DNA of 20,000 nt from an uncultured virus (IMG/VR IMGVR_UViG_3300005364_000001) (taxonomy: Duplodnaviria > Heunggongvirae > Uroviricota > Caudoviricetes), in IMG/VR virus record IMGVR_UViG_3300005364_000001, one strand, 5' to 3'. The notes under the pieces are model-generated. The model was given only the letters and a program-made list of their open reading frames with translations, did no database searches and was not told where the DNA came from. A program made the translations under genes and the position numbers. Positions 8,036-16,581 of this stretch are shown one piece after another. The stretch's first letter is position 1. The number at the start of each line of letters is the position of its first letter.

Positions 8036-9166
8036 ATGGACCTGCCGACCCGAAATGACCTGTTCGACGCGGCCGCGCGCGAGGTGATCGCCCGCTCGGA
8101 GGCCCGCGCGCCGGGTAAGCGCATCGCCCCGGCGGCGATCTACACCGAGGGCTCCGACGTCAACGTGCTGCTGGCCGGCGGCTCGGCGATGGCCGAGGAG
8201 GTGCTGCGCCAGGCCGCCAAGGCCGATGCCGACAAGTGGCTCGACTCAGCCCGCGGCGAGGCGCTCGACCGGCTCGTGCTCGACCGGACCAGCCGCGAGG
8301 TGATCCGCAAGGGGGCCGCTCCCGCCTACGTGGTGGTCAGCCTCGAGCGGCACGCCGGCCCGCTCGAGGCGATCACGCTCCCCGCCGGCAAGCGCCTGCG
8401 CACGGCGGGGCAGATCGAGTTCGAGCTCCTGACGCAGGTCTCACTAGGCGCCGGCGTCACGGGGCCGCTCTCGGCGACGGCGAGGGCGGTCCTGGCCGGC
8501 ACCGCGGCCAACATCGCCCCGGGCACGCTGGTCGAGATCGTCGCCACGCCCGATCGCGAGCTCACCGTGCAGAACCCCGGGCCGGCGACGGGCGGCTACG
8601 ACCGCGAGCCGGACGCGGCCTACCGCGGCCGCGCGCGGGCCTTTTACCGCACTGCCCGGCGGGGCACGATCCCCGCGATCGAGTTCGGGGCCATCTCGAC
8701 GCCGGGGGTGGCGTTCGCGACGGTCGAGGAGGGCCTCGACGAGCTCGGCGACCCGAACGGGTTTGTGTACGTGTACGTCGGCGACGTGACGGGGCAGGCG
8801 AACGCCCCGCTCGTGTCGCGGGTCAAGCAGGAGCTACGCGAGTACCGCTGCGGCGGCATCCCGCCCGTAATCGTCGGGGCGACGCCCGAGTACATCGAGG
8901 TCCGCTACCGCCCGAGCGTGCTCGCGGGCTACGACCCCGAGACCGTGCTCGAGCAGCTGCGCTTCGCGACGGTGGCGCTCGTGAACCAGGTGGCGCCGAA
9001 CAAGCCGCTCGAGCGCTCGCTGCTCTACTCGATCGCGCGCCGGGTACCGGGCCTCATCGTGCGCGATGAGCTGATCGCCTCGCCCACGGGCGACATCTAC
9101 CCAAGCGCACCGGGGCGGGTGCTGCGCACGACGCCCGATCGGGTGCAGCTCGAGGCGAGCGCGTGA
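8036..9166 (+). CDS. Baseplate J-like (gpJ/gp47) protein
   Basis: Motifs DSARGEALDRL, LPAGKRL, ARAVLAGTAANIAPGTL, NPGPATGGYDREPDAAYRGRAR...RGT. Confidence 0.9.
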   Translation: MDLPTRNDLFDAAAREVIARSEARAPGKRIAPAAIYTEGSDVNVLLAGGSAMAEEVLRQAAKADADKWLDSARGEALDRLVLDRTSREVIRKGAAPAYVVVSLERHAGPLEAITLPAGKRLRTAGQIEFELLTQVSLGAGVTGPLSATARAVLAGTAANIAPGTLVEIVATPDRELTVQNPGPATGGYDREPDAAYRGRARAFYRTARRGTIPAIEFGAISTPGVAFATVEEGLDELGDPNGFVYVYVGDVTGQANAPLVSRVKQELREYRCGGIPPVIVGATPEYIEVRYRPSVLAGYDPETVLEQLRFATVALVNQVAPNKPLERSLLYSIARRVPGLIVRDELIASPTGDIYPSAPGRVLRTTPDRVQLEASA

Positions 9167-9438
9167 CCAAGGTCATCGACCTTGAGCGCGCGCGCAATCG
9201 GCGCCTGCCGCTGCGCCAGTGCGCGATCGTGTCGCAAGTGCCCGGCGACGCCTTTGTCGACGTGAATGAGATCTTCGACCGCGAGGGCAACCCGGTCGCG
9301 GGGCGCGTGCTGACCTTCCACTTCGATCGCGAGGACTGGAATCAAGCGGTCCCGCCCATCGTGATCAGCGGCGCGCAGCTGCGCCTTCTGGCCGACGCAC
9401 TGCTCAAGGCCGCGCTGCCCGAGCCCGAGGACCCATGA
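9163..9438 (+). CDS. Hypothetical protein (91 aa)
   Basis: GTGA and ATGA overlaps at both ends indicate translational coupling; N-terminus MTKVIDLERARNRR. Confidence 0.65.
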   Translation: MTKVIDLERARNRRLPLRQCAIVSQVPGDAFVDVNEIFDREGNPVAGRVLTFHFDREDWNQAVPPIVISGAQLRLLADALLKAALPEPEDP

Positions 9439-9656
9439 GAGCCCCGCTGCGGCAGTTCATCGACGACGTCAAGGCATGGTGCGCTGAGCATGACGCCGAT
9501 TTCGTGAGCGCCGGCCAGGTGCTCTGGCATGACGAGCCGAGCTATCAGGCCGAGATCCAGTTCGCCAACGGGCGCAGCTTCTCAGCGCTCGCGCCGACCC
9601 CGAAGGAGGCCCTCGAGGACCTGGCGCGGCTCGGTCCGATCGTAGGTGGCACATGA
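9435..9656 (+). CDS. Hypothetical protein (73 aa), weak HicB-like motif
   Basis: ATGA-coupled at both ends; GAGGA upstream; C-terminal YQAEIQF...SALAPTPKEALEDL. Confidence 0.6.
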   Translation: MRAPLRQFIDDVKAWCAEHDADFVSAGQVLWHDEPSYQAEIQFANGRSFSALAPTPKEALEDLARLGPIVGGT

Positions 9657-11203
9657 GCGACGCAGCCAAGACCCAGGGCGAGCTCGAGCGCACCTTCCGC
9701 GACGTCACGGACCCCGGCTATCACCTGCCGCTCGAGGAGGACCCGCTCAGCTGGGATCCGATCGCGGCGATGGCCACGACGGCCGCACGCGCCTCGCGCG
9801 CCGTGCACACCAACAGCCAGTCCTTCTACCTGCTGCCGCACTCGCGCCAGACCGGCGAGAGCGCCAGCGGGGCGCGCCGCGCCGAGGCCTGGCACCAGGT
9901 GCGGCGCCGCGGGCACGCGGGGCAGGCGCTCTTTGTCCCCGCGGGGAAGCGGGTCGAGTACTTCCTGCGCGACTCACGCGGGCAGCCCGCGCGGCTCGAG
10001 GCCTACGAGCTGGCCGAAGACGTCGTCTTCGCGGCCGGCGAGGTGGGCCCTGTGGCGGTGCGCGTGCGTGCGGTGCGGCCCGGCGATCAAGCCAACCTGC
10101 CGATCGCCGATCGCGCTGCGCTGGTGGCCGAGGGCGTGCGCACGGTCGCGCTCAGCGCGTACGGCGGCGTCTCGCTGACCGACACGGGTAACCCCGACGT
10201 CTTCACGGCGGCGGATGTGGGACGCTACCTGCGCCTTCAGGGCGAGGCGCCGCGGCGGGTGAAGGCCTACTCGCAGGACGCGCTCGGGCGGGGCCAGGTC
10301 GAGCTCGAGGGCGACTCGATCACCGGCACGGGGCCGGCGGTGCTGCTCGAGTGGAGCGAGCTCGGCGTCGAGCTCGAGCAGCTCGAGGCCTTCAGCGGCG
10401 GCCGGCACGCGATGCTCGACCAGATCGGGCTCGAGCGCGACATGCCGCGGGGCCCGGGCGAGGGCGACGAGGACTTCGCGTATCGGATCTCGAGCCTGCC
10501 CGACGTGATCACGCCGGCGGCGCTCGAGCGGATCTGCGCGCGCATCCTGAGCCCGCTCGGGATCTCGTACGCGCTGCACGAGGTGCGCGACCCGGAGCTG
10601 CGGGGCTTCGTGCTCGACCTGACCCCGCTCGACGCCGGCGGCATGTGCTCAGACAGCTCCTGGGCGGGTGGGGTGCTGCTCAGCGATAGCGCGAGCAAGC
10701 GCCTGTTCGTGGTCTGCATCGAGCGCGCGATCAACGTCGGCTACGAGGGCGGCCTCGCGTTCGACTCGATGAGCTCAGGGGTCAACGCCTACGACGTCGG
10801 CTCGAGCTCGGGCGACGGGCGGCCGACGGGCTACCTCAACGCGCTGCGCGCGCTGCTGGTCGACCTCAACGCGGCGCGGGGCGGTGGCACCGCGTTCCGG
10901 GTGGTCGAGCGCACCGCCGTCGAGCCCTACGGGCTGCACGCGGTCACGCTCGAGGTGGGGATAGCTGCCGGTACGCCCGAGTACCTGGCGGCCCGGGACG
11001 AGGCGCTGGCGGCGCTGGTGCAGCAGCTCAGGCCTGGCGAGCGCACCAGCGAGGTCGAGCTCGCCGAGGCGATCGCCGGCCAGCTGCTCATGCGGGGCCT
11101 CGACGCGACCGGCGTAACCGTGCTCGTCACCGGGGGCGACCTGGTGCCCGGCCCGCTCGAGGTGCTCAACATCGCGCCCCTGGGCGGCGGCGGTGGCAGC
11201 TAA
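9653..11203 (+). CDS. Second J-like / wedge (gpI-like) multidomain baseplate protein
   Basis: N-terminal PAGKRV..YEL..GPVAVRVRAVRPGDQANLP and C-terminal ALVQQLRPGE..GGDLVPGP align by eye with the J protein at 8036; central LDQIGLERDMPRGPGEGDEDFAYRI wedge motif. Confidence 0.7.
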   Translation: MSDAAKTQGELERTFRDVTDPGYHLPLEEDPLSWDPIAAMATTAARASRAVHTNSQSFYLLPHSRQTGESASGARRAEAWHQVRRRGHAGQALFVPAGKRVEYFLRDSRGQPARLEAYELAEDVVFAAGEVGPVAVRVRAVRPGDQANLPIADRAALVAEGVRTVALSAYGGVSLTDTGNPDVFTAADVGRYLRLQGEAPRRVKAYSQDALGRGQVELEGDSITGTGPAVLLEWSELGVELEQLEAFSGGRHAMLDQIGLERDMPRGPGEGDEDFAYRISSLPDVITPAALERICARILSPLGISYALHEVRDPELRGFVLDLTPLDAGGMCSDSSWAGGVLLSDSASKRLFVVCIERAINVGYEGGLAFDSMSSGVNAYDVGSSSGDGRPTGYLNALRALLVDLNAARGGGTAFRVVERTAVEPYGLHAVTLEVGIAAGTPEYLAARDEALAALVQQLRPGERTSEVELAEAIAGQLLMRGLDATGVTVLVTGGDLVPGPLEVLNIAPLGGGGGS

Positions 11204-11409
11204 GGGCAGGGGGGGCCTTCCCTGAGAACACGGGCTCTTAGGGGGATCCCCACCTGGTAGATCGCGCCCCCGGGGCATGTCAGCAGGTGTCCGTCGCCGG
11301 ATTCGCCTGTGACTCCGTGTGCGACGGGGTAGGTACGACTCCCGTCAGGGCGCAAGGACTTGCGCAGATAGTGCTGTCTGTCTTACAGACGGATCACATC
11401 AAGCAGCAG

Positions 11410-11501
11410 ACAAGCAACAAATAGCACGAAGCCCCAGCATCGCGGTCAAAGGTCCTGCAAGACCTACGCGACACAAGGGCTTCGGATCGAGCACCAATGT
11501 T
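11410..11501 (-). ncRNA. Predicted counter-transcribed antisense RNA (ctRNA) upstream of the rep gene; ends approximate
   Basis: Bulged hairpin 11427-11484 (CGAAGCCC/GGGCTTCG, TCGCG/CGCGA, AGGTC/GACCT, 6-nt loop) followed on the minus strand by U-rich GTGCTATTTGTTGCTT; correctly spaced promoter just upstream. Confidence 0.55.
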
Positions 11502-11613
11502 CGAGGAATCTAACGCGTTTCTGCGCCGCAAGCAAGCATGCGGCGCAGAAAGCGGTAACGTACGGATCTCATTTAGGTATACGGCGAAACGGCAAGGCGG
11601 TGTGCCTTGTTGA
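11497..11613 (+). CDS. Putative rep leader peptide (38 aa, MFEESNAFLRRKQACGAESGNVRISFRYTAKRQGGVPC)
   Basis: Open frame from ATG 11497 to TGA 11611-11613, which overlaps TTG 11610 of the rep frame (TTGA); too short for the supplied ORF track; RBS weak. Confidence 0.45.
   Translation: MFEESNAFLRRKQACGAESGNVRISFRYTAKRQGGVPC
11507..11535 (-). promoter_or_regulatory. Sigma70-type promoter for the antisense RNA
   Basis: -35 TTGCTT (11535-11530), 17-bp spacer, -10 TAGATT (11512-11507). Confidence 0.6.
11518..11551. repeat. Perfect 13-bp inverted repeat
   Basis: TTTCTGCGCCGCA-agcaagca-TGCGGCGCAGAAA. Confidence 0.95.
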
Positions 11614-11618
11614 GATCC
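11564..11618 (+). promoter_or_regulatory. Stem-loop sequestering the rep ribosome-binding site and start codon
   Basis: GGATCTCA (11564-11571) pairs with TGAGATCC (11611-11618); inner CAAGGC/GCCTTG pairs the SD-like AAGGCGG with the TTG at 11607. Confidence 0.55.
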
Positions 11619-12986
11619 AGCTGTCCACGGTCGGACAACGACAACGCCGCCCCGCCGCCGGCGTTCGACGCGAAAGAGCTGCGCGCGGCCCGCGCCGCCT
11701 GGCGCCTGAAGGCTCGCCAGCGGCGCCTGTCACCGAGGGCGAGGCTGCTCGTCGACTACCTCGCGACGCTGAAGAGCTTCCCCCACGCATTCTTTCGCGT
11801 GAGCAAGCTGGCTGAGGAGCTCTGCTGCTCGTCGGCGCAGGCGAGGCGCACGGTGCGCGAGGTCGAGCGTGCGGGCCTTCTGGCGCATGCCCCGTACTAC
11901 GGCTCGATCGGCGAGCAGCGGGCCAACGACTACCTAGCGTGCGACGGCGAGCGCTGGTGCTGGCGGCTGCTCGGCGGCGACGAGCTCGGGCGCGCCGAGG
12001 GCCGCCTGCTCGTGAGCTCGCTGCTGAGCGCGACCTGGCGCTGGCGCGATGAGGATCTGGCCACGTCGCCCGCCGTGCTCGAGGCGCTGCTGCGCGCGAC
12101 TGGCGCCTGGGGACTCGCGGCTCGTAAGTGCAAGCCCCCCCTTGCAGATATGACCCCCCCCCCTTGCATGGATGCCACCCATAGTCTTAACGCTGAGTCT
12201 GCGGACGGGGAGGCAGATCAGCAGCAGCAAGCAGAGCCGCCGCCTGTGGATAACCCACCGAGTGACGAGAGCGACGAGCCGGACCTCGACGCCGACGACC
12301 GCGACCTCAAGCCCGACAACCCCGAGATGGAGCTCGACGAGGCGCAGCTCCAGGAGCAGCTCGACCGACTGGCGGCCCAGCTCGAGCTCGAGGACGCCGA
12401 GGTTGCGCAGCCCGACCTCACGCCCGACACTGCGGCCGCACCCTTCGGCGCGCGGGCATCGTCACCCGCTGCGGGCGACGCGAGGTTCGGGTCTCGCGCA
12501 GCTCCTGCGCCGAGGGGGGCTTCTCGGGGCCCGGGCCCGAGCAAGGTCTTCGCGCTGCCGCTCGAGCTGCGCGCTAGGCTGGTGGGGCGCTTTGACGAGA
12601 CCCGGGTGCGGGCTCTCGAGCGGGCGCTCGGGCAGGCCAAGCGATCGCCCGAGGTGATGATCGCCGCCGCGCACATGCTGCTCGAGCGCAACGCGCTCAC
12701 CCCCGCGAGCTACGTGCACAGCTTGTTCGACGACGCGGCCGAGCAGCTCGAGCGGGCGCTGCACGAGCCGCCGCCAGCGAATGCCCCTACGAGCGGCCAG
12801 GCGCCGCCCAGGGCGCGCGCGGCACCGAAGCCGCCTGACCCCTTGCTCATGCAGGTCCAGACCGCCCGTGAGCGCCTCGAGGCGCTGCCCAGGCACGATC
12901 CCCGACGGCCCCAGCACGAGCAGCGGCTCAAGGAGCTGCTCGACCAGGTGGCAGCCCGCGACCTTGGGCGGACGGCGGCCTCGTGA
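11607..12986 (+). CDS. Winged-HTH replication initiator-like protein (phage/plasmid Rep; start TTG 11607 or 11610)
   Basis: N-terminal LSPRARLLVDYL...FFRVSKLAEELCCSSAQARRTVREVERAGLL...GEQRANDY resembles HTH_36-type initiators; internal repeats and DnaA box; acidic/Pro-rich linker; helical C-terminal domain; in-frame stop at 11574 limits the start. Confidence 0.7.
   Translation: MLRSSCPRSDNDNAAPPPAFDAKELRAARAAWRLKARQRRLSPRARLLVDYLATLKSFPHAFFRVSKLAEELCCSSAQARRTVREVERAGLLAHAPYYGSIGEQRANDYLACDGERWCWRLLGGDELGRAEGRLLVSSLLSATWRWRDEDLATSPAVLEALLRATGAWGLAARKCKPPLADMTPPPCMDATHSLNAESADGEADQQQQAEPPPVDNPPSDESDEPDLDADDRDLKPDNPEMELDEAQLQEQLDRLAAQLELEDAEVAQPDLTPDTAAAPFGARASSPAAGDARFGSRAAPAPRGASRGPGPSKVFALPLELRARLVGRFDETRVRALERALGQAKRSPEVMIAAAHMLLERNALTPASYVHSLFDDAAEQLERALHEPPPANAPTSGQAPPRARAAPKPPDPLLMQVQTARERLEALPRHDPRRPQHEQRLKELLDQVAARDLGRTAAS
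12129..12253. other. Putative replication origin inside the rep gene: 22-bp-period iteron-like units and a DnaA box
   Basis: TGCAAGCCCCCCCTTGCAGATA / TGACCCCCCCCCCTTGCATGGA / TGCCACCC..., then relatively AT-rich ATAGTCTTAAC, and TGTGGATAA (reverse complement TTATCCACA) at 12245-12253. Confidence 0.6.
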
Positions 12987-12999
12987 GAGCATCGGCCCC

Positions 13000-13113
13000 G
13001 AGAGCGCCCTCGCTGCCGGGGCGAGATCCTCACGTCCCCAAAACGTTGCGGCGCGATCGAGGGGCCTCCCCCGGTCGCGCCCTGAGAATCTCGGCAAGGG
13101 ACAGGGCGCTCTC
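13000..13113. other. Branched secondary-structure element between rep and the first fibre-like gene
   Basis: GAGAGCGCCCT/AGGGCGCTCTC (11 bp perfect), CGAGATCCTCA/TGAGAATCTCG (10 of 11), GGCGCGATCG/CGGTCGCGCC (one wobble), GGGG/CCCC tip. Confidence 0.7.
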
Positions 13114-13133
13114 ACACGCAAGGGAGATCCAAG

Positions 13134-14456
13134 GTGGCCGGACTATCGCGCGCGACGTTTGCCCTACTTCAGCTGCTCACCAGCGACGATCTCCAGGCCG
13201 CCTTGCGCCTCATGGGGCGCGACGTGCTCGAGCTCGCGCGCTACCTGGTCGGCGATCGCCCGGTCGTGGTGGGCGGCCTCGAGGCGCGCCCGCTCTCGAC
13301 CGGCGTCGAGGTGCAGCCCGGCGTCCTGCTCCAGCCCTACGCCGGCGTCATCTCGGCGCCGCGCCCCGATGACTCGAGCTTCGTGCTGGGGCGGCTCGGC
13401 GATCCCGCCGCCGTGGCGATCCCCGCGCTAGGGGTGAACACCTGGTACCTGATCGAGGCGCGCGCGGGCGAGCTCGACTCATTCGGCGAGCGCCTGGTCC
13501 ACAACCAGACGCTCGACACGGAGACGCCCAAGCAGGTCCTCACGCGCCGCGAGGCCTCGATGGTGCTGCGGGCGCGCGCGGGCACGGCGAGCGCGATGCC
13601 CGCGCAGGTCGGCGGCTGGCTGCCGATCGCGGCGGTCCTGCGCCGCACGTCGGGCGCCGTGCTGGCAGGCGACGTCTACGACCTGCGACCCCTGCTCAAT
13701 CGGCCGCCGGCGGCGGGGGGCGAGCTCAGCGAGGCCTTCGTGCGGCAGGACTACGTCGTCCACTGGCGCACGCTCAAGTTCTCGATCGACGTCGAGCTCG
13801 TCGATCGCTTCGGGCAGCGCCTGAGCGCCAAGGCCGACAAGGTCGACGTCCCCACGCTGCACGAGCCCGGCTACACGCCGGTCGCCAACGCCTGGCGGTA
13901 TCTCTACCTCTGCAACCCGGGCGAGGGCGAGGCGCCGGCGACTGCGACGGGCAAGGGCGTGCTGGTCGTGAGCGGCACCAAGCCGATCGCGCAGGGCAGC
14001 CGCATCCCGAGCGCGGCGATCGCGCTGCCGGCGCCGTGGTCGCCGACGCTGCGCGCGACGTGCGTCGGGGCGATCTACAGCGCGCTCCTCGACCCGATGG
14101 CGCAGAGCTGCGTGCGCGGGCGTCATTTCGCGGGCGGCGCAGTCGCAAGTCAGACCGGGCCGATCCCGGCTGAGATGTTCCCGGGCAACGCTCGGCGCGT
14201 GACCTTTCGTGCGCGCTACAACGCAGCCGACGGCGACGATAAGGCGGTGCGGATCTACTCGCCGGCGCTGGCAACGTTCGACTCCGCGCAGGTCAACTTC
14301 TATGGCGCCGCCGCGCTCAACGGTCAGACCAACGTCTTGGAGTTCGACATGTTCGTGCAGGGCATCAACGTCGCCGACACGAAGCTCGACCTCACTGAGG
14401 TGCGACCGATGACACTGCCGAAGGAGTACGTGGCATTGATTCGCAGCGAGTTCTGA
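13134..14456 (+). CDS. Putative baseplate-attached tail fibre / receptor-binding protein, paralog 1
   Basis: GTG start with AGGGAG upstream; N-terminal LTSDDLQ...VVGGLEA..VEVQPG..WLPIAAV..DLRP pattern as in fibre-attachment domains; paralogous to 15208-16581. Confidence 0.6.
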   Translation: MAGLSRATFALLQLLTSDDLQAALRLMGRDVLELARYLVGDRPVVVGGLEARPLSTGVEVQPGVLLQPYAGVISAPRPDDSSFVLGRLGDPAAVAIPALGVNTWYLIEARAGELDSFGERLVHNQTLDTETPKQVLTRREASMVLRARAGTASAMPAQVGGWLPIAAVLRRTSGAVLAGDVYDLRPLLNRPPAAGGELSEAFVRQDYVVHWRTLKFSIDVELVDRFGQRLSAKADKVDVPTLHEPGYTPVANAWRYLYLCNPGEGEAPATATGKGVLVVSGTKPIAQGSRIPSAAIALPAPWSPTLRATCVGAIYSALLDPMAQSCVRGRHFAGGAVASQTGPIPAEMFPGNARRVTFRARYNAADGDDKAVRIYSPALATFDSAQVNFYGAAALNGQTNVLEFDMFVQGINVADTKLDLTEVRPMTLPKEYVALIRSEF

Positions 14457-15089
14457 TCACTGCCCTGCCGGCGCAGTCGCGAAGTAGATGTAGGGATCGA
14501 GGTCCGTGCCCTTGTACTCGGCGAATCCACCTGCGACGCGCTGGCGCGTGTAGTCGAAGATGATCGCGTAGCTGTAGCCGTCACCCGCCCCGGCGATCGT
14601 CCACTGGTTGACGGTTGTCTGAGTGGCCCACGCGCCGAGAAGCTGCGTCTTGGCCTTGTTGTCGTAGCGCTCGACCGTGGCGTTTGCGGGGTTTTCGGGG
14701 AGCACGTGCAGCGTCAGCACATGCCAGACATCGCCAAGGCCGGGCGCCTCGCCGCGCACCGAGATCGGGCGACCATCGAAGAACGACAAGGGCGCGGGCA
14801 GAGGCTCAGGATCGGTCATGCCTGAGTCGACCACGGGGGCGCCTGCATCGGCAACGACGGGGGGCAGGGCCGCGTCGACCACGGCGATCGCGCCGGCGTC
14901 GACCTCGGGGGCGATCGCGGCGGCGTCTGCCTCGGGGGTGACGGGCGCGGGCTCGAGCGGCGCCGCGGCGTCCTTTTCGCGTGCCCGCTTGGCCAGGTCC
15001 TCGGCGCCGTCGAGCTCGGCGCCCTCGGCGCCCACATCGGCGCAGCCCACAACCAGAACGACCGCCAGCAGCGCGAACACCTTACGCAT
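14457..15089 (-). CDS. Lipoprotein (210 aa) with DAG/DAA Pro-Ala-rich linker; moron-like
   Basis: GAGGAG SD, signal peptide and lipobox MRKVFALLAVVLVVG-C, linker VDAGAIAVVDAALPPVVADAGAPVVDSG, beta-rich C-terminal domain; opposite strand to the tail genes. Confidence 0.8.
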   Translation of the reverse strand: MRKVFALLAVVLVVGCADVGAEGAELDGAEDLAKRAREKDAAAPLEPAPVTPEADAAAIAPEVDAGAIAVVDAALPPVVADAGAPVVDSGMTDPEPLPAPLSFFDGRPISVRGEAPGLGDVWHVLTLHVLPENPANATVERYDNKAKTQLLGAWATQTTVNQWTIAGAGDGYSYAIIFDYTRQRVAGGFAEYKGTDLDPYIYFATAPAGQ

Positions 15090-15207
15090 GACCCGAATCT
15101 CCTCTGCCGCGACGCGGCGATACCGGGCTGATCTTCGGGCGGTCTGGGCGCGAGGTTGAGCGCGAAACGCAGGTTTCGGTGTGGGACCATGCGGTACCCT
15201 CGGCGGC

Positions 15208-16581
15208 ATGCCGAGCGACCGTGTCCCGTACTACCTCAACGAGCAGTTTTCGAGCGCGGACCTCAACGCGCAGCAGCTCGCGCTCGAGCGCACGGTCGAG
15301 GACCTGCTCGGCTTCTCGCTGTGGGCGCCGCGCCTTCAGCCGATCGGCGAGCCGCCGGCCAGCGGCGAGGCGCCGGCGCAGGGGGCCGTGATCGGGGGCC
15401 TACGTGCGACCACGTCAGGCGGCACCCTCACGGTGGGCCCGGGCGCGCTGCTGAGCACGGGCGTCGCGAGCCCAGGTAGCCCCCCGAACCACGGCGGCGT
15501 CTGCGCGGCCGCGGTGGGCGGCGCCAGCATCCTTGTCCCCGCGCCCGTCTCGGACACCTGGTACCTCGTGAGCGGGCGGCCCGCGCTGATCGACCAGGCC
15601 GCCGTCTCGCGCAACGTGCGCAACGGCGAGGCCTGGGTGCCGACCCCGCTGGTCAAGCTACGCCAGGCGTCGCTAGAGCTCATCGTCACGGCCGGCACGG
15701 CGACCGACCTACCTGCGACCTCACCGGCGACCTATACGCCGCTCTGGGGCGTGTTCCGGCCCGGCGGCGGGGGCGCCATCGTGTCCGCGACCCAGGTGGT
15801 CGACGTGCGGCCCTTCGCCGGCCCGCGGCGGCCGAGCAACAACGGCGCCGTGATCTTGCAGAACGAGTTCAGCATGCGGACCGGGCTGACCCTCAATGCC
15901 CGCGTGCAGCTCGACGAGCTCGACCTGCATGCCTGCACGGACACCCCCTTCGACCCGCTGCTGCTGCTCGACACGGCGGCCGCCGCGCCTGCAACCAATC
16001 AGTGGGCGTACCTGTACCTCGCGCGCTGGCGGGGCCTCTCGACGCTCTGCGCGCCGCGGCATGCTCAGGCCAAGATCGCGGGGCTCAGTCAGCAGGGGCT
16101 GCTCATTCTGAGCACCGTGCCCCCGACCCCGTCAGGCCCGCACGGCCGGCGCAACAGCGCCGCGCTACGGCCCCCGGCCCCATATTCGGCGGGCATCGTG
16201 CCCGAGGGCGACGCGCTCGCGCTCGGCGCGCTCTTGAAGACGGCCTCGACCTGGCAGCCCGCCAACTGCGTGCAGGACCGGGTCTACGTCCCGGTCTACG
16301 GGGGCGGCATCCCCGATTTCACCGCCACGGGCGACTTCACCTTTGCGCGGCACCCGCGGGGCGCGCGCAGCGTGCATTTCTACATCACGCGAGACGACCC
16401 CTACGGCGGGGTCACGATCCAAAGCCCGAGCGGCCGGCTCTTCTATCAATCCGACGAGCAGGCCGAGCACTCGACCGTCGACACGGGCGAGTTCCCCATC
16501 GATCCAAGCGAGACCACGCTGAGGTTGGCCTCCGCGGGCTCGGCCAACTGGACCGTCACGCTGCGCAGCTATCGCCTCTAG
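15208..16581 (+). CDS. Putative baseplate-attached tail fibre / receptor-binding protein, paralog 2
   Basis: Start at ATG 15208 (MPSDRVPYYLNEQFSSADLN); collinear motifs shared with 13134-14456 (VIGGL, TWYL, AGTA, D.RP, W.YLYL, PAP.S, P..AR.V.F). Confidence 0.6.
   Translation: MPSDRVPYYLNEQFSSADLNAQQLALERTVEDLLGFSLWAPRLQPIGEPPASGEAPAQGAVIGGLRATTSGGTLTVGPGALLSTGVASPGSPPNHGGVCAAAVGGASILVPAPVSDTWYLVSGRPALIDQAAVSRNVRNGEAWVPTPLVKLRQASLELIVTAGTATDLPATSPATYTPLWGVFRPGGGGAIVSATQVVDVRPFAGPRRPSNNGAVILQNEFSMRTGLTLNARVQLDELDLHACTDTPFDPLLLLDTAAAAPATNQWAYLYLARWRGLSTLCAPRHAQAKIAGLSQQGLLILSTVPPTPSGPHGRRNSAALRPPAPYSAGIVPEGDALALGALLKTASTWQPANCVQDRVYVPVYGGGIPDFTATGDFTFARHPRGARSVHFYITRDDPYGGVTIQSPSGRLFYQSDEQAEHSTVDTGEFPIDPSETTLRLASAGSANWTVTLRSYRL

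Follow-up and report, generated by a model that had tools for sequence, protein, structure and literature searches.

The 20,000-nucleotide (nt) stretch of DNA analyzed here, hereafter the window, belongs to a myovirus-like soil phage deposited as IMG/VR record IMGVR_UViG_3300005364_000001 (class Caudoviricetes) and carries, between 2 tail genes, a cassette at positions 11204-13133 that encodes a putative replication initiator, Rep. With a probability of about 0.68, judging from the sequence, we interpret this cassette as a self-contained theta-type, copy-number-controlled plasmid replicon, with which the phage would persist as a low-copy plasmid prophage, that is, as a phage-plasmid. The phage-plasmid status is inferred from the 38,451 bases of the ~64.2-kb genome that were analyzed. 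The interpretation of the cassette as a copy-number-controlled replicon in a tailed phage draws on a Rep homolog encoded beside ParA, on a conserved candidate antisense promoter and on repeats conserved as DNA. The initial annotation of the cassette had described a leader, a counter-promoter, a leader open reading frame (ORF), a TTG start, a winged helix-turn-helix (wHTH) gene, internal repeats, a DnaA box and a downstream structure, all of which are present where it had placed them, as follows (SD, Shine-Dalgarno sequence; aa, amino acids):

11204-13133, plus strand: the cassette, from the stop of the 9653-11203 gene to the start of the 13134-14456 gene
11204-11345, no strand: G+C-rich spacer with hairpins, a possible insulator or processing region; it folds, but within the shuffle range (120-nt windows)
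11350-11389, plus strand: candidate rep promoter, with -35 TTGCGC (11360-11365) in the palindrome GCGCAA-N4-TTGCGC and a weak -10
11377-11389, no strand: small inverted repeat, a possible operator, overlapping the candidate rep promoter
11410-11501, minus strand: antisense RNA of ~90 nt predicted from folding, whose 5' tail covers the AUG and SD of the leader and is followed by a long stem-loop and a U-rich 3' tail
11427-11484, plus strand: H1, target stem-loop in the mRNA leader, with loop CUGCAA (11455-11460); the terminator hairpin of the antisense RNA is complementary to it
11497-11613, plus strand: leader ORF of 38 aa, which holds the antisense promoter and whose stop TGA overlaps TTG 11610 (TTGA, 11610-11613)
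11507-11535, minus strand: candidate antisense promoter (-35 TTGCTT, 17 bp, -10 TAGATT), inside the leader ORF
11518-11551, no strand: H3, inverted repeat in the leader ORF, with 16-nt arms (94%), whose loop contains the antisense -35 and which is not oriented as a terminator
11564-11618, plus strand: H4, hairpin with arms 11564-11585 and 11597-11618, containing the SD (AAGGCGGTG, 11594-11602) and TTG 11607/11610
11607-12986, plus strand: rep, encoding the putative replication initiator (458-459 aa), which runs from a winged helix (~20-119) through a disordered linker to a helical domain (~315-386) and a helical hairpin at the C-terminus
12129-12178, no strand: putative iterons, 2 22-bp copies of TTGCA-N4-TG[A/C]C (12142, 12164) and an inverted TGCAA at 12129
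12245-12253, minus strand: DnaA box TTATCCACA, perfect and the sole one in the window (0.05 expected; 10/200 shuffles)
12987-13133, plus strand: downstream branched structure, closed by arms 13000-13010 and 13103-13113

Structured leader and candidate antisense promoter

The leader (11204-11640) folds at z = -5.98, with none of 100 shuffles equally good, and in a scan of 120-nt windows the lowest z among 199 (-5.8/-6.1) falls at start 11501, the signal spanning 11400-11620; the fold of the first ~140 nt (windows 11201 and 11301) is not above chance. At the sequence level, the layout is that of an antisense-controlled replicon, with a counter-oriented promoter, an RNA spanning the rep leader and a hairpin/U-tract end; the start of this RNA (~11501) was placed from the position of the promoter. 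The promoter pattern, TTG-N20-TANNNT, has one site in the 20-kb window, which is also the only one in the 38,451 bases of this phage, and 7 sites in the 257,996 bases of six phage sets. Because 0.36 sites per window are expected by chance, its presence alone is not significant, and the weight of the predicted promoter rests on position and conservation. In the phage G003, the sole source of a homolog with available DNA, the single site in 61,296 bases lies in the first rep codons, just past the equivalent hairpin. The pattern was written after the sites of both phages had been seen, and the match between them is thus not blind. The blind test looked for the footprint that the promoter leaves in the reading frame, with Gln, seven codons further, as its last residue. 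This footprint occurs within the first 8 residues of P0002, P0003, P0007 and P0008 (protein only). These are all of the further homologs whose N-termini are full (4 of 4), and 4 of 7 homologs outside the G003 cluster, against a background of 7/172 ORFs (per-protein shuffle p = 0.069, 0.042, 0.016 and 0.009).

Conservation of the leader between this phage and the G003 locus L003 appears to consist of layout and short motifs; the whole-leader DNA alignment is not significant (24% of shuffles as good). A hairpin equivalent to H1, with loop UUGGCG, is present in L003, and ACTTGCGC sits upstream of the hairpin at the same place in both (1 copy in the window, 6 in G003). A consensus promoter/terminator scan, which needs 9/12 matches, returned 0 sites; the antisense promoter scores 7. 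The Rfam scan gave chance-level hits only, with no CopA or Inc match, and blastn of the leader against plasmids and phages returned only fragments with E 0.4.

The leader ORF shares promoter footprint and frame with the first rep codons of homologs and is the counterpart of the rep start in relatives; the family thus includes both leader-coupled and direct versions. The leader architecture, which the initial annotation had expected in homologs, is accordingly not general: in G003, the antisense promoter is present, a separate leader ORF is absent and the antisense arrangement lies over the start of rep itself. A -1 programmed frameshift fusing leader and rep was rejected, since by eye the stretch from the in-frame stop (11574) to 11613 has no slippery heptamer. 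A repressor-operator role for the GCGCAA..TTGCGC palindrome is likewise unsupported, because the palindrome is not repeated near cro. TTGCGC recurs as a -35 in the phage group of G004, a relative described below. The match to the promoter pattern in G004 was dismissed as a rep control element, as it sits at a divergent gene pair, not at rep; a divergent promoter region of that genome (L014, 10270-10320) has TTGCGCAA palindromes.

In-gene repeats, DnaA box and downstream structure

Tandem repeats of 22 nt begin at 12135 and 12157, in the linker-coding DNA of rep. Their motif, TTGCA-N4-TG[A/C]C, has 2 sites in the window, 22 bases apart, and 0 in the 18.5 kb of flanking DNA analyzed. The linker peptide of P0002 matches the repeat DNA in the +2 frame (7/8 residues; score 48 vs a null maximum of 40 in 200 shuffles), and since this match is in another frame, the repeat is conserved as DNA and not as protein. 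An origin inside the gene should show just this pattern, conservation across a frame change.

A run of 10 C (12154-12163) separates the repeats. Because P0002 reads the second repeat in the other frame, slippage at the C run probably changed the local frame within the family, and slippage at this site could switch the rep gene off. The pentamer TTGCA occurs in four copies in the cassette, three in the repeat region (12141-12147) and one antisense of the H1 loop (11454-11461), maybe by chance. The fold downstream of rep (12987-13140, z = -3.28) is weaker evidence, as z < -3 was found in 17/199 windows.

The relative G003

G003 is a complete phage with terminal repeats. Divergent from its rep homolog are a small partner gene and the gene for ParA (CbiA, E 3e-14), with short repeats separating them from rep, and a separate DnaD-like loader is encoded after cro, in the early region. 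Within the G003 rep gene, other repeats are found at the same place as in the window, followed by a purine-rich run. The sequence between parA and rep includes tandem TGTAC/GTACA repeats (L003, 9485-9545), a likely centromere, and parA is followed by a gene of 101 aa. Downstream of rep (L006, 5979-7255) lie three short ORFs of 65-75 aa that look paralogous, have no family match and possibly code for small DNA-binding proteins, and a row of ParB_N-like, ABC/GNAT and formyltransferase genes (L006, 1427-4136) might be a DNA-modification cluster.

The Rep protein family

AlphaFold/VIA places a winged helix at residues ~20-119 of Rep, and the HTH_36 match is borderline (E 4e-5 and 23.7 bits in one search, 27.9 bits in another; cut-off 25). 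PDB sequence and fold searches distinguished no named initiator; RctB domain 1 (Z 6.4) tied with generic wHTH rows in the fold search, and the single-sequence AlphaFold model was poor. Rows in BFVD include "replisome organizer" and "replication initiator" proteins with weak E-values. HMMER against 1.84 billion representatives found 9 proteins, query counted, and word-indexed homolog searches only Rep itself and P0008, which matches PHROG 270, replication initiation protein (E 7e-5). For residues 310-390, the named Atlas neighbours are RepA/RepB C-terminal families at 0.85-0.87, which, being <0.9, are leads only. Matches of the homologs comprise weak ones to GntR and, for one homolog, a very weak one to RP-C_C (E 0.098). 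P0005 resembles Rep in its C-terminal half (43% over 124 aa) and has another wHTH, just after which the DNA for its residues 66-73 (PVDSPVEN) could contain two DnaA-like boxes in tandem. The family is small and unnamed, combining a wHTH, a variable linker and a small helical domain, and is best regarded as a putative new initiator family.

Insertion of the cassette between tail genes

The genes that flank the cassette are as follows:

9653-11203, plus strand: upstream flank, outside the cassette, baseplate-related; some homologs have Baseplate_J; orthologs in L012, L022 and L023
13134-14456, plus strand: downstream flank, outside the cassette, a tail-module gene; orthologs directly after the upstream gene in L012, L022 and L023

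Related phages, which the initial annotation had suggested comparing for the presence of the cassette, lack it: in 3 of 3 syntenic phages readable at the junction (L012/G004, L022/G006 and L023/G007), only 12-13 bp separate the orthologs of the two flanking genes, which identifies the cassette as an insertion. This count leaves aside G005 (L013), where synteny is unclear and rep is likewise without a match, and L025, which stops short of the junction. The rep profile has no match in G004-G007.

Both cassette ends have CCCTGAGAA in common; end-to-end similarity is not above chance (direct, 39%, and inverted, 13% of shuffles as good), and none of the read or assembly joints among the rows listed skips the cassette. 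For these 2 reasons, mobility of the insertion sequence or attC-like type is unsupported. Codon usage of rep matches that of the phage structural genes (relative synonymous codon usage, r = 0.95), which, together with the lack of significant end repeats, suggests either an older insertion or a donor with a similar genome.

Phage genome

Upstream of the cassette, the window encodes a tape measure protein, a baseplate hub and Baseplate_J proteins, and downstream Erf and a cro-like gene; sheath and head genes are found in the overlapping record G002 (27.5 kb). The phage thus has the virion genes expected of a phage-plasmid, including those for tape measure, baseplate, sheath and head proteins. 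Its assemblies measure 64,239 bases (L011), 64,139 and 64,250, and the window is preceded by 11,493 bases in the L011 contig, by 6,368 in run X1 and by 15,468 in G002, which is shorter. Since the start points differ between assemblies, the genome maps as a circle of about 64.1 kb, a map that fits a plasmid state or headful packaging alike and does not discriminate between them. The phage DNA has 70% G+C and an excess of CTCGAG, a composition and word usage that may resemble those of Polyangiales. Scans of genome contigs gave no match, and ParA and methylase searches were uninformative on the host.

Proposed mechanism and alternative explanations

If the cassette is a copy-number-controlled plasmid replicon, a weak promoter near 11360 would transcribe the leader-rep mRNA, and the counter-promoter in the leader ORF, whose conservation is described above, would produce the ~90-nt antisense RNA at a level that tracks copy number. 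By the geometry of their complementarity, this RNA would pair with H1 and cover the leader AUG and SD, blocking leader translation. With the Rep SD and TTG held in H4, Rep would be made mainly by ribosomes that end the leader and restart at TTGA. The winged helix of Rep may then bind the 22-bp repeats in its own linker-coding DNA, by analogy with pSK41, while host DnaA would assist at 12245 and the C-terminal helical domain would recruit host replication proteins.

Several results weigh against this interpretation. The mean unpaired probability is 0.44 for the SD and 0.47 for the TTGs, and blocking the 5' arm of H4 in an equilibrium model reduced these values to 0.22 and 0.03, respectively; because accessibility was lowered, simple unmasking of the SD and TTG is unsupported, and re-initiation at the TTGA overlap is likelier. 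The promoter footprint is missing in 3 of 7 homologs outside the G003 cluster (P0004, P0009 and P0005; the called starts of P0004 and P0009 fall within the wHTH) and, where present, amounts to compatibility only, as Gln could be CAG. P0004 has no significant off-frame match to the repeat DNA, and the DnaA box is absent from the G003 rep. The fold search of Rep proposed in the initial annotation yielded MarR-type and other generic wHTH proteins as its best rows; among PDB structures, none of a known initiator was matched at E <= 0.001, and the confidence of the model is low (predicted local distance difference test, 61; predicted template modeling score, 0.31). Rep has no match in plasmid or phage collections. 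Circularity, par genes and the absence of an integrase had also been put forward as checks: the map is circular and record G002 has no integrase, but par genes are found neither beside the cassette nor in G002. G003 has a tyrosine recombinase and could therefore integrate.

The absence of the cassette from three syntenic relatives and of par genes beside it would also be explained if the replicon, working or once-working, had been acquired from a plasmid or a different phage-plasmid and did not serve stable prophage maintenance. Moreover, G006 and G007, which are 99-100% complete, lack rep and a tyrosine integrase and show no above-cut-off ParA, and the lineage can therefore do without the cassette. 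We nevertheless consider such a passenger unlikely, because ORF, promoter, coupling and repeats are all intact, with the codon usage of structural genes, and because P0005 and P0016 (60% to the flanking gene) are each encoded on two contigs, the longest of 65,751 bases, a hint that a sister phage may keep a related rep. A decidedly improbable reading is that of an antisense-controlled transcription regulator or antirepressor moron in place of a replication protein. The top PDB rows of Rep are MarR, Fur and similar regulators, and the weak GntR matches of the homologs point the same way, but these matches span the generic winged helix only, and a regulator leaves unexplained the conservation of the repeat DNA, the DnaA box, the RepA/RepB-like C-terminal leads and the adjacency of parA. 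Least probable in our view is that Rep is a lytic, lambda-O/DnaD-like initiator relocated to the late region and held in check by the antisense RNA during late transcription. Although HTH_36 and in-gene repeats fit phage initiators too, the BFVD rows named above are in line with one, and the 38.5 kb read showed no second initiator, G003 keeps rep beside parA in addition to its own early-region DnaD-like loader, and complete relatives are without the Rep family. A dosage-sensing antisense RNA, a device established for plasmids, would also suit maintenance and not runaway replication.

Comparison with known replicons

In the staphylococcal plasmids pPR9 and pSK41, antisense control is combined with an origin inside an HTH_36 initiator gene (PMC5703833). 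The cassette resembles them in the N-terminal winged helix (pfam13730 in pPR9), putative origin boxes in the linker-coding DNA and a C-terminal domain modeled as helical, as well as in the size of the counter-transcribed RNA (~83 nt in pSK41/pPR9, a predicted ~90 nt here), and P0005 appears to show the swap of the N-terminus with a retained C-terminus known from pPR9. Unlike the cassette, pSK41, a Gram-positive conjugative plasmid and not a phage, has four Rep boxes and, in the portion of the source available, no described leader peptide (PMC5703833); there is no sequence match between the two, and a DnaA box is present here. With regard to the RepA_N/pPR9 group, HTH_36 is matched at borderline level and repeats are present in the linker-coding DNA in two copies, Rep has no Pfam match to the RepA_N domain, and, as to a DnaD-like helical C-terminal domain, the model is helical there, with Atlas leads below 0.9.

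In Pseudomonas, the REx-C/RepJ replicon of pPsv48C is under leader-coupled control, and some modules have no leader (PMC5304414), which parallels G003. The cassette shares with it stem-loops, a putative antisense RNA, a coupled leader (repI of 123 nt; 117 nt here), structured DNA after the stop and an SD of AAGGcGGTGA vs AAGGCGGTG here. By contrast, that replicon is described as being without iterons and occurs on plasmids, not phages; no DNA or protein similarity was found. In R1 and IncI2 plasmids, rep is coupled to a leader peptide that an antisense RNA blocks, and in the AS RNA/repR/repA system of IncI2 the antisense -35 likewise lies in the leader gene, and a pseudoknot was not found there (PMC8053102). 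In the window, no good loop-complementary partner for an IncI/IncB-type pseudoknot was seen by eye in 11560-11606. A leader peptide overlapping the rep start, as in IncFII, is present here and not in G003, and homology to IncFII RepA/CopA was detected by none of the Pfam, NCBIfam, plasmid tblastn and Rfam searches. The R1 origin is located downstream of repA. The order of hairpin, leader and rep is that of Inc RNA-repY-repZ in IncI1/IncB; their UUGGCG target loop is present in G003, whereas the loop in the window is CUGCAA. UUGGCG is the target motif of ColIb-P9, according to a reference title in PMC10724649.

repABC replicons have an antisense RNA in the leader and an origin within repC (PMC3155836). 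In p42d, repC is described as lacking iterons and a DnaA box, acting via termination and being co-transcribed with par, unlike the cassette, which has no par genes upstream and whose Rep has no RP-C match. Among phages, RepA/parABS plasmid prophages are known from mycobacteriophages, where part of a phage group carries the replication cassette, close to where the virion genes end (PMC7157519); there, rep and parABS replace the integration cassette, whereas here rep lies in the tail operon, on the same strand, with no par beside it. Many phage-plasmid families await tests (PMC12282955). The cassette would work like these systems, yet it falls outside IncFII, RepA_N and repABC. Of the initial annotation, the replicon with copy-number control, antisense RNA, coupled leader and in-gene origin held up, through the ParA-side homolog, the promoter and the repeat, but not its description as a novel hybrid, since antisense control, in-gene origin and HTH_36 are combined in pPR9/pSK41 and the first two in repABC. 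A search of the literature by title or abstract start, with most subscription papers outside it, found nothing on this Rep family or on a myxobacterial phage-plasmid.

The regulatory logic is thus known, and what is new is the initiator family, which is without a match in curated plasmid and phage collections, and its stand-alone position in a tail operon; the putative circuit of promoter, RNA, leader and origin is placed to the base. As a plasmid replicon, the cassette suggests that a phage lineage may gain plasmid maintenance by one 1.9-kb insertion. That it is a portable one-gene replicon, with its own promoter, copy-number sensor and origin, an undescribed initiator family and swappable DNA-binding heads, whose insertion into the tail operon produced a phage-plasmid, is an idea we offer tentatively and regard as doubtful. 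If the host is a myxobacterium, the fragment would be a candidate shuttle-vector origin and a new native replicon for a plasmid-poor group. According to PMC11705834, only two myxobacterial organisms are known to have a plasmid; this scarcity is softened by the 5,770 computationally predicted myxobacterial plasmids of a 2026 preprint (10.64898/2026.09.14.751636).

Additional features of the tail region

Two short ORFs at 9163-9656 and a minus-strand lipoprotein-like ORF at 14457-15209 are without an ortholog in G004, which suggests that the tail region collects morons. Run X2 differs from the window at many positions in 14334-14441, at the end of the 13134 gene. Each G004 ortholog of the genes at 13134-14456 and 15181-16581 matches both of their proteins, which therefore appear paralog-like over the N-terminal 350 aa.

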